This document shows, one piece after another, positions 1 to 8,595 of a stretch of 8,598 nucleotides of DNA (positions are counted from its first letter, which is position 1; each line of letters begins with the position of its first letter). The position numbers and the translations under genes were made by a program. The notes under the pieces are model-generated. The model made no database searches. It was not told where the DNA came from and saw only the letters and a list, made by a program, of their open reading frames with translations. This DNA comes from a virus. Taxonomy: Duplodnaviria; Heunggongvirae; Uroviricota; Caudoviricetes. The stretch is from the IMG/VR virus record IMGVR_UViG_2802429224_000018. One strand, written 5' to 3'.

Positions 1-1980
1 TTATGAATTAATTGATCGTGAAATCTCACACCAATAAACTCCATCAAATTGAAGTTCTATTCTATCAAGACCACTATTAGGGACCCAATCACCATTGAGA
101 CGCAAATTACCAGACATGTCTTTCAGGGTAACGATATCTGATGAAGTTGCAATCCCAAGAAGCAACCTTTGCCATTGCGTACCACCATTAATCGTGGTTA
201 AATCAACCCTTCCTCCAGATAAACGGTGGAATGAGCGGGTTACAGTTATTGCCCCGGAAATGACTGGTAAAGTAGTCGCTTCATTTACTTGTTTTTTTAT
301 TAGATTGACTTCTGGCTTAAGATTGCCATCTTTATCAAGAACCATTACGTCAGAAGTTCCATATCTAAACTTCAATTTATTTTCATCACTATCATCACGA
401 TATATTTTTAAACCACTAACAGTAGAATTAGCAGAATCGCCAAACTGAATAGAGCTATCTGTAGTTCCATCTGTCTGTGTTTCTGCCCTGGCACGCAATC
501 CTTTACCCTTATGCCAGACATCAAATCCACGCCAAGATGGGCCACCAACCAATATCACACTCCCCCCAGCGGAGTTCCCAATACATGAGGCATCCTTATA
601 AACTGGATCGTCTGTAAATCTGCACCCAATAAAATAAACATCGCCAGTGGTGTCATCACCAACGAACCTTGAGGTATTGGCTGTAGGGTCAGATGTGTAA
701 TCAGGAAGCTCCATCACCACACTTTGAAAAACAACATTATTGGCGCTATATAATTTTATAGCATCATTACCATACTGCTGAATTCGACCGCCTGTAATAT
801 AATGTCCATTAATAGAGAACCCACCGCCATCAATAACTAATGCCGTACTATTAAATTGTCCTGTTTGCCGAGAGTGATGGTCGTTTGCATACAAATCCCA
901 ATTATCCCATCTGGTTTCACTTAGACCGTGGCTGCCTGTTCCAAGAACTATAAATCCAACATTGCCAGACGAAGATCCGTTTATGAACTTTGTACCATCA
1001 GGGTCTGATCCATAATGAATAACCCCTGCAACTGGGAAATACCCCCACACCGTTATATTTTCGTACCTCCCCCTCGTAACATCGTTGCAGAACAGCCCAA
1101 CATCATAATTAGAACGATTATCAGATGAAATGCCTGTTAATTCCCCACTTTCATTTAAGACATCCATATCCATAACGATAGCAATATTTGTCATTGAGCG
1201 TGGTGAGCTGTCACCTGCTCCGTCTTTTACACAATAAGTAAAGCTATCGTATGGTGAACTTCTTACAGTGCTTCCTTTCGCAATACCAGTACCTGAGAAT
1301 ATTAATGTTGTCCCTGGAATTTTATTTTTGTATCCCGGCCTCAGAAATCTCTTATCGTCCTGCCAGTTTGGGAAAGCACCCATTTTAGGAGAGAATACCC
1401 CCCTCCATTCCGCTGCTTTTTTCTCAATCCCATTTGAGCATCTAAATTGACCGTGAGGAAAATATAGTGCTTTCCCATTTTGCGCACACCATTCATCAGC
1501 AGCAATTATTGCTTCCGTGTCATCAGTTATATAATCTCCTCTTGCCCCCCAAGCACGAACATCCCCCTCATCACGCCATCTTGATATCTGAAGAAGTGGA
1601 TATTTCATAACACCATCAGGATCTTCTAACTGCTGGCGAAGCTGATCCGGGTCGTACTTCAACACATTAGGGAAATAGAACTGCTGCGCCCCATATGCAT
1701 CGTACACAGCCATAGAATGTCCTTGCACAGTTACGAACTTGGCAATCTGTCCGTTATATACCGGATATCCAGCAGCGTTAATGATGATGGGTTGCGAAAC
1801 AGGAACGTGAGAACCGTCTTCGTTCTCCACATAAACCTGAATCTGGTTTTCAGGGTTTACCGGGTCAGTGTCAATTTTACCGATATAAATTTTGCCATTG
1901 GCTACGGCTTTAAAAGAACGTGCCATAGTGAAGAGTTGCGAAGGCATCGATACAATCACATTGGCTGTAATGTCTGTCAT
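1..1980 (-). CDS. Tailspike protein: P22-family capsid-binding N-terminal domain fused to a beta-helix, pectate-lyase-like receptor-binding/depolymerase domain
   Basis: 659-aa ORF, ATG at 1980-1978 with GGAG 8 nt upstream, TAA at 3-1. The first ~113 aa ([43 protein letters not shown]...VLKYDPDQ) match from memory the conserved head-binding domain of P22/Sf6/HK620-type tailspikes. Just downstream is [18 protein letters not shown]...[11 protein letters not shown], the G-x-G-D-x-x-TDDT...YFP-x-G signature typical of pectate-lyase-3-type phage depolymerases. Position as the last late gene after ant matches P22 gene 9. Confidence 0.9.
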
Positions 1981-2158: not shown

Positions 2159-3088
2159 TCAGTAGTTATGTATTGAAGGAGGTAATTCTTTATTCTTAAG
2201 TCTCATCCATGCGGAAAGATTCGTTGGTCCGTCTGGCTCATTGATATCAACATCTCGTGTGTGATTGATTAAAACGTCTCTCGCCATTCCGATAACATAC
2301 GAGAACTCATGACCATAGTCGTAGCATCTGCCGGAATAGTTCGATTGAATTTGTTTTAGCGCCGGATACAATTCGCGGAATAATGCCTGTGAGCGGTTGG
2401 CATAATCCCATAACCATACAAGACTGTTTGCTTCTTTTGCAGAAAGCTCGTTGGTTTTCTTATCTTGTTTGCCGATGAACTCTCCTTCAAGCGGAACGCG
2501 AGCAGCAAGTGACAGTGCTTCGGTAAACTGCTCCTCACTGATTTCTTTGTACGAACATCCAAAATGGGATTTCAGTGACGACCACATGGTGATCATCGCC
2601 TTAGCCTGTTTTTCTTTTGGCAGAGACTGACCGCGACTCATGACGAGTTGTTTAATGGCTTCCTGCTGTTCAGTGGTGATTTTACCCGGCAACGCCTTTT
2701 TAGCTTTGCGTGGGTTAACTACATGGCCTTTAGTCCAGTACTCGTATAGCACATCGTCACACTCTTCCTGATACTGGATTACCTTGTCGCGGATTTCAGG
2801 GCGGACTTTGTTAGGACTGATGGTTTGCAGCCAGCCAGCAAGTTTGCGAAGTGCCAAACAAATAATCTCACGGCACTGTTCATCACCAGGAAGCTGCATT
2901 GTGATTTTCACAATGGAGGTTTTAAACCGTTGCTTTATTTTCGTAAACTGTGAAGCCCAATCCATACCCATTCCCTCAACGATAGGTTTCATTGGGGTGT
3001 ACGGATCACCGTTGTGATTGACGACATAAAGCTCTGCGCCGTGGAATGGCACGTTGATAGTAGATACCGCTGTTGCTATACTTTTCAT
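2159..3088 (-). CDS. ant: Antirepressor Ant (P22 immI-type)
   Basis: 309-aa ORF, ATG at 3088-3086 with AGGAA 9 nt upstream, TGA at 2161-2159. It lies immediately downstream of an Arc-like gene and divergent from an Mnt-like gene, which is the canonical immI arrangement. The N-terminus ([23 protein letters not shown]...) is recalled as P22 Ant-like; P22 Ant is ~300 aa. Confidence 0.8.
3054..3082 (+). promoter_or_regulatory. Psar-like sigma70 promoter inside the first codons of ant, firing antisense
   Basis: TTGATA (3054-3059), a 17-bp spacer, then TATACT (3077-3082) on the plus strand. The predicted start near 3089 is directly opposite the ant start codon. Confidence 0.5.
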
Positions 3089-3160
3089 GTCAATATTTCC
3101 TAAGCCGATTTGTTGATACCGAAGCCCTGACTGTTACAGCAGTTGGGGCTTCACTGTTTT
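3089..3160 (+). ncRNA. sar: sar-like small antisense RNA complementary to the ant ribosome-binding site
   Basis: The Psar-like promoter upstream and an intrinsic terminator (hairpin 3121-3152 plus T-tract to 3160) bracket a ~70-nt transcript. It is fully complementary to the ant Shine-Dalgarno and leader (3089-3105). P22 sar is 68-69 nt with the same placement and orientation. Confidence 0.55.
3121..3160 (+). terminator. Intrinsic terminator of the sar-like RNA
   Basis: GAAGCCC (3121-3127) pairs with GGGCTTC (3146-3152); the stem can extend to ~13 bp with two G-U pairs around a 6-nt loop. It is followed by ACTGTTTTGATTTCTTT on the plus strand only; the minus-strand side is not U-rich. Confidence 0.55.
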
Positions 3161-3320
3161 GATTTCTTTGCCGCATCAAGCATCACTTCTGAAAACGTGC
3201 GCTTGCCACTGAATACTCTTTCTCTTCTCAATTTTTCGTTCGTGCCAAATGATTCGCCATGAACAAAATTTGGTCTCAAAATGGTAAGCGCAATCTCTTT
3301 GACTACTGCATCCAAGCAAA

Positions 3321-3461
3321 TCACACTGTTACCCCCTCCCTCTTCAGGCTGTCCAGCACCCGTTTAATTACTTCTGCGCTGAATGAGCGACACTCTTCCT
3401 TTGCTTTTTCTTCAAGAATTTTTTCTAGCTTCTCTGGCATACGCAGTGTTTTTACCTTCAT
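3321..3461 (-). CDS. arc: Arc-like ribbon-helix-helix repressor (46 aa); not present in the supplied ORF track
   Basis: Manual translation of the minus strand: ATG at 3461-3459 with GGAGGA 4-5 nt upstream, TGA at 3323-3321. Product is MKVKTLRMPEKLEKILEEKAKEECRSFSAEVIKRVLDSLKREGVTV, which aligns with P22 Arc as recalled (NLRWPREVLDLVRKVAEENGRSVNSEIYQRVMESFKKEG): L-R-x-P, A-x-E-x-x-R-S, E-x-x-x-R-V and K-x-E-G are conserved. It is upstream of ant and divergent from mnt. Confidence 0.8.
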   Translation of the reverse strand: MKVKTLRMPEKLEKILEEKAKEECRSFSAEVIKRVLDSLKREGVTV

Positions 3462-3480
3462 TGCATCCTCCGTTGTATGT

Positions 3481-3540
3481 GGTACGCATACATAGTATTT
3501 AGGTACGCATTGATAGTCAATAGATACCTACATATCCTGT
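3481..3540. promoter_or_regulatory. Divergent Pant/Pmnt promoter-operator region
   Basis: Minus strand (Pant): -35 TTGACT (plus 3520-3515), 17-bp spacer, -10 TACTAT (plus 3497-3492). Plus strand (Pmnt): -35 TTGATA (3510-3515), 17-bp spacer, -10 TATCCT (3533-3538). The two -35 boxes overlap within the palindromic core TTGATAGTCAA. Around it sits a 31-bp imperfect palindrome centred at 3515 (TAGGTA...TACCTA outer arms, 11 of 15 arm positions symmetric) and a 15-bp direct repeat GGTACGCATnnATAG at 3481-3495 and 3502-3516. Confidence 0.55.
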
Positions 3541-4535: not shown

Positions 4536-4604
4536 ATGGTAACAATCGGTTGGATTATTGTTGCCCTGCTTGTTGCTCTGTGGGCAAAGAATCGTTACTA
4601 CTGA
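4536..4604 (+). CDS. Candidate 22-aa hydrophobic mini-protein ([22 protein letters not shown]); not in the ORF track
   Basis: ATG at 4536 preceded by GGAGG with a 6-nt spacer; a single predicted transmembrane helix with a basic/aromatic C-terminus; TGA at 4602-4604. Caveat: its last 50 nt are antisense to the 3' end of the gp16-like gene, and antisense of Gln/Glu-rich coding sequence tends to look hydrophobic. Confidence 0.25.
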   Translation: MVTIGWIIVALLVALWAKNRYY

Positions 4605-6723
4605 GAAAAGCGACAATACCAACGCGGGCTAGATTTTTCTTCTCGTCCGCTGATAGCGTATTTACCCAATCCCTATATGGTTTCACTTTCTGCATTGAAG
4701 CATCCACCGATTTCCTAGAGGCTGGGGTGCTGGCGTGACCTGCGGCAATCCTTTTTGAGAGATTTTTAAAAGCCGGAGATGCTATTAATTCATCAGCGGC
4801 AGCCATTCTTGAGTTTTTACCAGAACGGAGGAGGCTAAAGAGTACCCCTGCCGTACCGGCTCCAGGCGCTCCAATGGCTGTGGTTAGCCCTTCTGCTTTA
4901 GCCACGTCTTTTCCTATTCCATATATACGCCCAAGCATTCCCTTCTCTCCTGCGAACTGATTCATCATCCGGTCAATTTGAGAGGAGGAATACACCTTCT
5001 CGCTGCCCACCCTTTGCATGCCAGAAGCCACCTCATAGATGTTTCTCAACCTACGCGTAGCCGGATAGCCAATTGCCCGGCTCAATGCCTGCATATTTGA
5101 TTTGTTTCTTGATAGCCCTTCATACCACTTAACAAACCCAGGAACACCAAGTGACTGCCCGGGAGATTTAGCGAACGTAGTGAAAGCCCTATTCATTGCG
5201 GTGGCAACAGCTGGTTGCACCATGTCATCAGGAAGATTTGAAACTAGGCGACGGAAGTCACCTCCCTTTCCTTGAGACATATCGACGATAGCTTGCTGTA
5301 ATTGCGGCACTATTCCTTTATCCAAGTCTCTGCCAAGATTTTGAACAGCGGCTGCCTGTACTGCGAATCTCTTTCTCCCGATCTCTCTAGCTAAATTCCA
5401 TGTATCCTCTGCACCATATTTGGCAGCAGCGGCTCCCTGATCTTGTATCAGTGCGCTTTCAATAATTCCAAGGTGCCGAGCGTCGATGCCGCTATATGGC
5501 CCTTTATCCATCTCTTTGCCAAGAGCCCTTCCAACCTGTCGTCGAACTGCATCAAGAAGACCATAAGTCGGGGCGGTGTTTGGGTCTATTTGTTCCAAGG
5601 TCTTTGACAGTTGAGGATATAGCGATTTTAGTTTTTCTAGCCCACCGACATCATCTGCAATATCCTCAATGGCGTTAGTGGTATGGGTGGTATCTACGGT
5701 AGCTCTTGTTGGAATTTTTGCTCTAATTTGATTGTATAGAGTGTCTTCTTGGCGCTTCAGGTTTGATCTTAACTCCTCATAAGAGCTTTTTACCTTTTGA
5801 TTGATAAAGTCCTTATCAACGCTCCCACCAAAATCATTAATAAATTTATCTGCCTGCTCTCCAAGCCTACTAATGGCCTCTCGCTGTGCGTGGAACAGTT
5901 TATTCCCTGGGGTTGCAGCTAAAGCATTTTCAAACGCGCGGTAAGAAGGGTTGCTGGAGTACATGCCGGGAGTTAAGGCATCTTCCATCCCAAGATTGCG
6001 GGCGGCCTGTAGCACAGAATCATCTGGTGAAACAGCTTTCGCGAGAGCATTTAAACCAGATCTGTTTCCTGTTATTGGATTCACATCTGTAGCTTTCGTT
6101 GCAACCCTCGCCATTCCACTAAGTTCAGATGCCTGAGACATTTCTGCCGATGGAGGCTTAAACCTCTTCGTAACCGCACTGGCTGCTTTGCTAATCACTG
6201 GAGATGCCAATTCAGCAATTGGACCAGCGGCAGCACCTATAGCCGCCCCTGTAGTTACATTGCCACCGGTTCCGTTAGCAACAACACCACCTTCAACAGC
6301 GCCAAGCCCTGCGGCGGCAGCCAGCCTTGCCGCCCCTTTCGGAACCTGAGAAATAATCCCACCACCACTAACAAATGGCGCTGCTTGTCCAACAAACTCA
6401 CCAACATCTTGTGCGGTTGATGGTTTTGCCGCTAACTTCTGCTGTAGAGACTGAATTGCGGCTTGCTCTTCTGGTGTCATATCCTGAAACAGGCCAACAC
6501 CTTTACCAATATCCATCAATCCACTGAGAACACCATACATAAAACGGTCGAAACCGTTAGCATTATTAACAACATTTTCCTGTCTGGAATTTTCCTCTGG
6601 CGAAACCAAAGGTGATTGCTGCTGTTCTGGTTGGGCATCAAGCACAAAACCATCAGGAAGCTGTGAGTTATCAGGCTGATTATCGAGAACAAAGCCTTCG
6701 GGTAAACCTACATCGGTTGCCAT
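4555..6723 (-). CDS. Ejection (DNA-transfer) protein, P22 gp16-like
   Basis: 722-aa ORF, ATG at 6723 with AGGAA 7 nt upstream, TAA at 4557-4555. It is the third of three consecutive late genes directly upstream of the immI module, matching the P22 order 7-20-16-(sieA)-mnt-arc-ant-9. Ala/Gly-rich internal stretches. The start overlaps the preceding gene's stop by 16 nt. Confidence 0.75.
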
Positions 6724-8051
6724 TGTCCGTTCCTGTAAATGAGTTTCTGACCAGTTTTAGGGTTCGTTGCCGTCGCGCCTTCTGATATCCCACTTGGCGC
6801 AGCTTTTGTCTGCCCATTACCACCTTGTGGTGTAGGCTGCGCTGGGACATCGTCAAATAGCTTGGCCTTCCTTCTCCCTAAGCTTTTTTTCAGCCCCTGA
6901 GGAATAGTATCTCCATACGTATCCAGATATTCGTCTACCTGCTGGTTAAACTGCTGCCCCATAGCGTTGGCGTTAATTTTTGCTGCGTTAACAATGTTAT
7001 CCCTCGCTTCCTGTGACAAGCCATTCCCTGCATTAAGCTGGTCTACATATCCTTTTATCTGCCCCCATATGCCATCAGAGCGCATAACCTGAACCTGTTC
7101 ACCTTCGCGAACAACTGACTGAGGGTCGAGAGACTTCATGTAATTAAAGATAATCCCAAGTTGGGCAGCGCCAGTATTTACCTTGCTAAGGGCTTGCAGA
7201 GAGTTTGCCGCCGCTCTGACAGAGTTATAATTTTTGCCAAAATTGGTAATGTCAGAATTTAATCCCTTAATTAAGTCTGCTGACGGCTTACCTTTTTGCC
7301 CCAGCTCCATTAGCTTCAATCCCATCTCATCTGAGTGCATTTGTGCCCGCTGAGCCCTGTCTAGTTGAGCGTTCTGGATATTTGCCCATCCTCTCGCATT
7401 CTCCATATCAGCCTGACGGATGCTTTCATCCAATCGCCCTTTCTCAAGTTGGCGACCAACCATCTTATCCTGAACAGCAAACGCCTTTTCTGGTCCAAGC
7501 GCACCGAGAGACATAGTAGTCAGCATGTGTGATAGCTGCTCTGGATTCTGAATACCTGTCTGAATCATCCAGTCAGCATTCGCCCCCACGCGATTTAACC
7601 TGTCCTTGTTATCAGTAATGAATTTACTGTAGGCTTCCGGTCCCTGAGAAAGAGCGACGTTAGCCCTCATGGCTAAATCGCCCATATCGTTGCGTTGCTG
7701 CTCATTAAGACCGGAAAACGCCTGTTGTGCCTGTGTAACAAACGCTGGATTTTCCTGGGCAAACTTAAATAGTCCCGATGGATCACCAGAAGCCCATGCA
7801 TCAGCGTGAACCTTATTGAACGCATTAATCGCTTTCTGTTGCTGTTCCTGCTTATAAATATCAGCAACTCCAGCCAGACCACGTAACGCGGTCAGACCAA
7901 CGTTATTTGCACCTGAGCGAGCCAATTCATTGTTTTCGCGGATCAGACCAAGCGTTGCGTTAATGTCGCTTGCCTTTGGCGCATTCTCATTTTGCGTACC
8001 GATGCCAGCCAGAAAACCACCAGAATTAATACCCTGTTGCCACGTAGCCAT
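6708..8051 (-). CDS. Ejection (DNA-transfer) protein, P22 gp20-like
   Basis: 447-aa ORF (P22 gp20 is ~470 aa), ATG at 8051 with AAGGGG 7 nt upstream, TAG at 6710-6708. Middle gene of the three-gene ejection cluster. Confidence 0.75.
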
Positions 8052-8061
8052 TGATTACCCC

Positions 8062-8595
8062 TTAAAACAACGAGCCAAGCAATCCGATACCAGCACCAAT
8101 GCCAGCGCCCCAAGGTGTTGATGTTCCCAAAAGGCTGGCAAGACCTGCACCGGCAATCGCACCGGACGTTCCGCCACTAATTGCTGTCTGAAGACTTGAT
8201 GGTTTGTTGGCGTTAGCAGCGGCAAGTGCTGCGCTTTGCTGTGCAATGCTACTCATGTTGTTGGCGTATGTCTGCCCAGCGTTTGCCTGACCTTGCAACG
8301 CACCAAGGCCAATGTTTGCCAGATTGTTGTAGTTGCTCATTTGTCCAGATAGCCATTGCTGACCAAGCGTTGGTGCGATTGTTGCTAACTGATTACTGGT
8401 TGCGGTGGAACCCAATCCACCTGTTGCTTCCGCTGCAGCCAGACTCTGATAGCGAGCCTGACCTGCAAGGTCTTTATACTGCTGAGAGTTGTAATACTGG
8501 TTAAGCGCCTGACCTTGCCCTTCCAGAGACGATAAGTTCTCGAGGCTGCCGACATACTTCTCAGCCAGAGGAGTAAACGGTTTCAGGTTGTTCAT
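8062..8595 (-). CDS. Ejection (DNA-transfer) protein, P22 gp7-like; N-terminus at the window edge
   Basis: 177-aa ORF from the ATG at 8595-8593, TAA at 8064-8062. Gln/Asn/Ala/Gly-rich low-complexity sequence with a hydrophobic Gly/Ala/Leu C-terminal tail (GAIAGAGLASLLGTSTPWGAGIGAGIGLLGSLF), consistent with a membrane-inserting ejection protein. The reading frame is still open at 8598, so the true start may lie outside the window. Confidence 0.65.
   Translation of the reverse strand: MNNLKPFTPLAEKYVGSLENLSSLEGQGQALNQYYNSQQYKDLAGQARYQSLAAAEATGGLGSTATSNQLATIAPTLGQQWLSGQMSNYNNLANIGLGALQGQANAGQTYANNMSSIAQQSAALAAANANKPSSLQTAISGGTSGAIAGAGLASLLGTSTPWGAGIGAGIGLLGSLF

Follow-up and report, generated by a model that had tools for sequence, protein, structure and literature searches.

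The question raised by this locus is whether a short plus-strand segment at the 5' end of an antirepressor gene, positions 3054-3160 of the window (the whole 8,598-nt stretch of viral DNA that was analysed, IMG/VR record IMGVR_UViG_2802429224_000018), encodes the small antisense RNA sar known from phage P22. The immI region of P22 comprises mnt, arc, ant and sar (PMC2629481), and sar itself was described in P22 by Liao et al. (1987), Wu et al. (1987) and Schaefer and McClure (1997) (references of PMC2629481). In P22 and its relatives sar binds to the ant mRNA and thereby blocks its translation (PMC11016777; PMC13397905). A further transcript of arc and ant comes from Plate, and it is a target of sar (PMC12111858). 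We conclude with high confidence that the segment is the sar gene of a P22-like prophage, the antisense RNA of which would block the synthesis of Ant. This assignment is based on homology, structure, covariation and genomic context, and transcription, the exact RNA ends and the repression of ant are carried over from P22 by analogy.

The Rfam model for sar, RF00262, matches positions 3090-3155 of the plus strand with 62.1 bits (gathering score 43, E 2.7e-11). The match is full-length, covering model positions 1-68 of 68, and it is the sole Rfam match within the whole window. P22 itself reaches 97.8 bits with this model. Among other phages, N7 scores highest with 94 bits and TL-2011b lowest with 44.8 bits; the Rfam listing for sar at the gathering threshold does not include the Edwardsiella phages GF-2 and Edno5 or one Klebsiella phage. 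The element possesses the two hairpins of the family, a 5' hairpin followed by a 14-bp 3' hairpin, and its minimum free energy fold has the same form as that of P22. It lies antisense to the ribosome-binding site of ant, between ant and the preceding gene of the Pant operon. At the level of sequence, a sigma-70 promoter of its own is present inside the 5' end of ant, followed approximately 70 nt downstream by an intrinsic terminator. A sequence-only reading of this DNA had proposed a sar-like RNA in the P22 arrangement, and this proposal is borne out by the RF00262 match and by the geometry of promoter, start, hairpins and terminator, which is that of the P22 genome (NC_002371). The element represents the ordinary sar RNA that is already known.

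Table 1. Features of the window around the sar element, ordered by position.
Feature	Position	Strand	Basis or remark
Tailspike gene, P22 head-binding domain	1980-1	-	Pfam
ant, 309 aa	2159-3088	-	Pfam P22_AR_N and P22_AR_C; 58% identical to P22 Ant
Psar -35 hexamer TTGATA	3054-3059	+	Promoter scan; 5/6 to consensus
Psar extended -10, TG-C-TATACT	3074-3082 (TG 3074-3075, TATACT 3077-3082)	+	Promoter scan
Predicted sar RNA, ~69-72 nt	3089-3160	+	Start and end by analogy with P22; Rfam match 3090-3155
Hairpin I	3089-3117	+	7-bp basal stem GUCAAUA/UGUUGAU
Hairpin II, intrinsic terminator stem	3121-3152	+	14 pairs, loop UACA, then ACUGUUUU
orf57, 57 codons, between arc and ant	3151-3324	-	Candidate gene
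arc-like repressor gene, 46 aa	3321-3461	-	Pfam Arc; 36% identical to P22 Arc
Overlapping divergent promoter-like sites	3492-3538	both	Promoter scan; layout as in P22 annotation
Pant candidate	TTGACT 3520-3515, TACTAT 3497-3492	-	Promoter scan
Pmnt candidate	3510-3538	+	Promoter scan
mnt-like ribbon-helix-helix repressor gene, 85 aa	3561-3818	+	Pfam Arc domain; 32% identical to P22 Mnt
722-aa ORF	4555-6723	-	Adjoins ejection-protein genes
Inj_translocase ejection-protein gene	6708-8051	-	Pfam
P22_gp7 ejection-protein gene	8062-8595	-	Pfam

The surroundings of the element are those of a P22-type immI region (Table 1), with mnt divergent from arc-ant, two ribbon-helix-helix repressors and a P22-type antirepressor. 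BLASTP comparisons with P22 Arc, Mnt and Ant gave E-values of 3e-9, 1e-11 and 2e-122, respectively. The ATG of ant is located at 3088-3086 and is preceded on the minus strand by an AGGA Shine-Dalgarno sequence at 3101-3098. Two inverted repeats, TGTATGTGGTACGCATACA (3474-3492) and GTACGCAT (3503-3510), were observed where the divergent Pant and Pmnt promoters lie; these repeats, which differ from the P22 operators, are candidate operators for Arc and Mnt. The immI region is embedded in the late operon, with the ejection genes, ant/arc and the tailspike gene all encoded on the minus strand. On this strand, small ORFs accompany the 722-aa ORF between the ejection-protein genes and the Pant-like promoter. 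The 722-aa ORF gave no match in a Pfam search; it matches PHROG 6704 (unknown function) over its full length and, weakly, a lytic tail fibre family. The tailspike carries an N-terminal head-binding domain typical of P22. Its C-terminal part of approximately 546 aa (1-1640, minus strand) shows at most 35% protein identity to anything in the phage collection and found no megablast match among 5426 complete E. coli genomes.

The promoter, Psar, has a 17-nt spacer between its hexamers and agrees with the consensus at 10 of 12 positions in the scan of the plus strand. On the opposite strand its -10 covers ant codons 3-4 and its -35 covers ant codons 10-12, and on the plus strand TATACT is followed by TTT and then by CAT (3086-3088), which is complementary to the ant start codon. 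In all 123 loci compared, 3 nt separate the -10 hexamer from the complement of the ant start codon. The hexamer is TATACT in 95 loci and takes other TAnnnT forms in the remainder, and the TG of the extended -10 is present in 120. The -10 is conserved although 28 different ant N-terminal contexts lie upstream of it. The -35 of the window, TTGATA, falls into the best class seen among the loci, with GTGTTA at the same place in P22.

By analogy with P22, the RNA is predicted to start at G3089, 7 nt after the -10 and directly beside the ant ATG, and it probably ends in the U run 3157-3160. It folds into two P22-type hairpins with -29.8 kcal/mol (z -6.0), a stability reached by none of 200 shuffles. 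The apical part of hairpin I contains the anti-Shine-Dalgarno UCCU (3098-3101). The terminator scan found the 14-pair stem of hairpin II followed by ACTGTTTTGA, and the U tract of this terminator is interrupted (ACUGUUUUGA). Taken by themselves, neither the promoter-like sites (3 found, 1.9 expected in 1.3 kb) nor the terminator-like sites (3 found, 1.0 expected in 1.3 kb) are above chance, and the significance of the element comes from the Rfam homology. Both the near-consensus promoter TTGATA-17-TATACT opposite the ant start and the terminator approximately 70 nt downstream on the same strand had been noted before; the former was recovered by the promoter scan at the same position and the latter corresponds to the hairpin at 3121-3152 with the U run at 3157-3160. 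The placement of this terminator in an arc-ant spacer holds only if orf57 is no real gene; otherwise it resides in an orf57-ant spacer.

For the structural comparison, 120 IMG/VR loci were gathered by a 17-mer from the 5' arm of hairpin II. Among the loci gathered in this way, hairpin I occurs in 28 distinct alleles, all of which form a basal stem of 5-8 bp enclosing the anti-Shine-Dalgarno UCC or CUCC. The hairpin I allele of the window is itself a common one, present in 6 of the sequences examined. A covariance model built in this analysis was searched over 60 sources, each of which gave one strong match, used at E 1e-5 or better. As plain MAFFT misplaced the P22-type 5' arm by one column, the covariance-model alignment was used for the pair counts. 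In 56 distinct sar sequences, 96.5% of the pair cells are paired, vs 37-44% with the partners slid by 1-3 columns, in an alignment that is fitted to the model. Nine pairs changed on both sides in these 56 sequences, among them every one of the 6 hairpin I pairs, and none of 500 shuffles reached the covariation score. The invariance of the hairpin II 5' arm is partly a selection effect, this arm being the search key for most loci. The loop bases of hairpin II vary while its stem stays paired, and in the Edwardsiella phages, which were found by BLAST, the hairpin II stems differ and are still complementary.

These data bear on the possibility that the element is a sar homologue by descent that is silent or functionless here and is kept only within a block often exchanged by P22-like phages. 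The sar core is indeed a mosaic joint, with 28 upstream (ant N-terminal) and 29 downstream contexts among 123 loci, and the CUS-3 record labels the corresponding stretch (3073-3153) as 'bsq2 boundary sequence', both of which would fit a silent passenger. However, the promoter is intact with a better -35 than in P22, the ant, arc and mnt ORFs are intact as well, the changes across hairpin I alleles are compensatory and not random, and hairpin II keeps its pairing under loop variation and even in the different stems of the Edwardsiella phages, so that we regard a silent copy as very unlikely.

The strand on which the structure acts was also considered. Hairpin II has -22 kcal/mol on the plus strand vs -16 kcal/mol (z -4.4) on the minus strand, and hairpin I has -5.6 kcal/mol (z -3.7) on the plus strand vs -0.6 kcal/mol (z 0.1) for its complement. 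The plus-strand hairpins are stronger than their complements because of conserved G-U pairs, three of which become A-C mismatches on the minus strand, where the stem is interrupted and 6 kcal/mol weaker. A U tract following the hairpin was not found on the minus strand, and the terminator scan reports a terminator here on the plus strand only. On the mRNA, the region of the ant Shine-Dalgarno sequence is essentially unstructured. The strand asymmetry and the missing minus-strand U tract indicate that the structured and terminated RNA is the plus-strand one, and this points to the plus-strand RNA as the selected structure. A main function of the hairpin in the arc-ant mRNA of the minus strand, for example in mRNA processing or stability or as a Pant terminator, with the plus-strand promoter then being incidental, would suit the intercistronic position of the hairpin II complement just upstream of ant and the fact that this complement still folds, but given the strand asymmetry, the unstructured hairpin I complement and the retention of the extended -10 in 120 of 123 loci, such a main role was rejected as extremely unlikely.

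The preferred reading, an active sar RNA, can be put into the following mechanism, which is modelled on P22. The extended -10 sigma-70 promoter situated opposite the first dozen codons of ant would start transcription of sar at approximately G3089, and transcription would end about 70 nt later at the intrinsic terminator formed by 3121-3152 and the U run. The predicted RNA is a perfect complement of the ant leader between -1 and about -70, the AGGA Shine-Dalgarno sequence included, and may present its anti-Shine-Dalgarno in the apical part of the weakly paired 5' hairpin. Pairing of sar with the ant mRNA would occlude the ribosome-binding site, resulting in a block of Ant synthesis. This regulation would matter most for transcripts that escape the repression of Pant by Arc and Mnt. 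Late-operon read-through may be among these transcripts; on its way to the tailspike gene it has to pass through immI on the minus strand.

The sar block of the window is identical in the NCBI assembly GCA_002965365.1 (contig PTST01000023.1) and in a Logan assembly. In both assemblies, non-phage genes (ZinT, DUF1398 and TusA families) come after the tailspike gene, and this indicates the end of a prophage. Window positions 3040-3330 are matched in 635 of 5426 complete E. coli genomes, and the block of sar plus orf57 occurs with 98.8-99.6% identity in many complete E. coli genomes, e.g., in O104:H4 strains. In the phage collection, from which the taxonomic spread of sar is taken, sar-like sequences were found in Salmonella, Escherichia, Edwardsiella, Klebsiella and Cronobacter phages, beside several kinds of antirepressor genes. 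A scan of genome contigs (596 Gb) with the 17-mer CCGAAGCCCTGACTGTT was tried as a measure of spread and discarded, as only one of its 85 matches had the full hairpin II and the rest were due to chance.

Among the phage records examined, sar is annotated only for P22, P22-pbi, P22virB-3 and epsilon34. In Salmonella phage SPN3UB a sar-like RNA (48 bits, Rfam) precedes a gene for a 'hypothetical protein', and in two further Salmonella phage records a sar-like RNA precedes a 'Rha protein' gene; all three records are filed in the collection outside the P22 genus (Lederbergvirus). The identification matters little beyond correct annotation, as it concerns a classic element that Rfam finds at default thresholds in a sequence that is already public. 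In practice, most E. coli records of phages and prophages with a sar copy lack its annotation. As leads, the variety of hairpin I alleles and orf57, the ORF without a name between arc and ant, are only mildly useful.

The GTG start of orf57 overlaps the arc TGA (GTGA) and is placed behind a GGAGG motif, and its stop codon (3153-3151) is located in the 3' arm of hairpin II, at a place equivalent to that of the arc stop in P22. The ORF directly upstream of ant is thus orf57 and not the Pfam-recognised Arc homologue. For its product, the only match is PHROG 17642 (unknown function); a Pfam match was not obtained, and there is no significant similarity to P22 Arc. Approximately 10 close protein homologues exist, some of them with frameshifted C-termini. 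In a check for coding signals, the related loci were found to differ from the window at only 3 sites in this region, and the AlphaFold model is of low confidence (mean pLDDT 54.5). Annotations of the block disagree: a hypothetical protein is listed in several RefSeq E. coli records but not in others, and phiv205-1 annotates a hypothetical gene of 174 nt at the equivalent position. orf57 is absent from P22 and from the closest complete E. coli relative.

Two further ideas, that the hairpin I alleles, attached to a nearly constant hairpin II, are specificity types and, separately, that orf57 is a third protein of the arc-ant operon, are considered unlikely. If the former were true, the sar RNA of a prophage would silence the ant of a superinfecting P22-like phage in trans only with a matching hairpin I allele, and the specificity types would resemble the incompatibility groups that are set by plasmid antisense RNAs. 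If the latter were true, the product of orf57 would be an uncharacterised third operon protein, the stop codon of which is tied to the sar terminator.

Among known systems, the c4 antisense RNA encoded in immI, a second immunity region, of phages P1 and P7 is likewise small and represses an antirepressor operon at the level of translation. However, c4 is not homologous to sar. It is released by processing of the transcript that also carries its target, and it works by way of short complementary sites. It does not have the form of a convergent transcript that is made from its own promoter and is complementary over its whole length.

The closest counterpart is P22 sar (NC_002371), to which the window sequence shows 83% identity over 81 nt, the comparison that the sequence-only reading had suggested. 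As in P22, an extended -10 of the form TG-C-TATACT is placed in the first codons of ant, the first base of the RNA lies 7 nt after the hexamer and adjoins the ant ATG, the RNA folds into two hairpins with the anti-Shine-Dalgarno in hairpin I, and the terminator extends into the 3' end of the ORF upstream in an immI region with mnt, arc and ant. The description of the RNA as diverged from P22 fits hairpin I, which together with the linker is identical at 12 of 30 positions and has the stem GUCAAUA/UGUUGAU here vs GUUGGU/ACUGAC in P22, but not hairpin II, which is identical at 33 of 34. Further differences to P22 are that the -35 of the window is nearer to the consensus, that the upstream neighbour of ant is orf57 and not arc, and that Arc, Mnt and Ant are only 36%, 32% and 58% identical to the P22 proteins. 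Within E. coli, unannotated sar copies with 94-99% identity over the -10 and the RNA body are present in PhiR12_1/4/5, Kapi1, CUS-3, phiv205-1 and the O104:H4 prophages, with the Escherichia phages PhiR12_1/4/5 being 98.8% identical to the sar of the window, and these P22-like copies differ only in the ant N-terminus and in the upstream module that are joined to the sar core.
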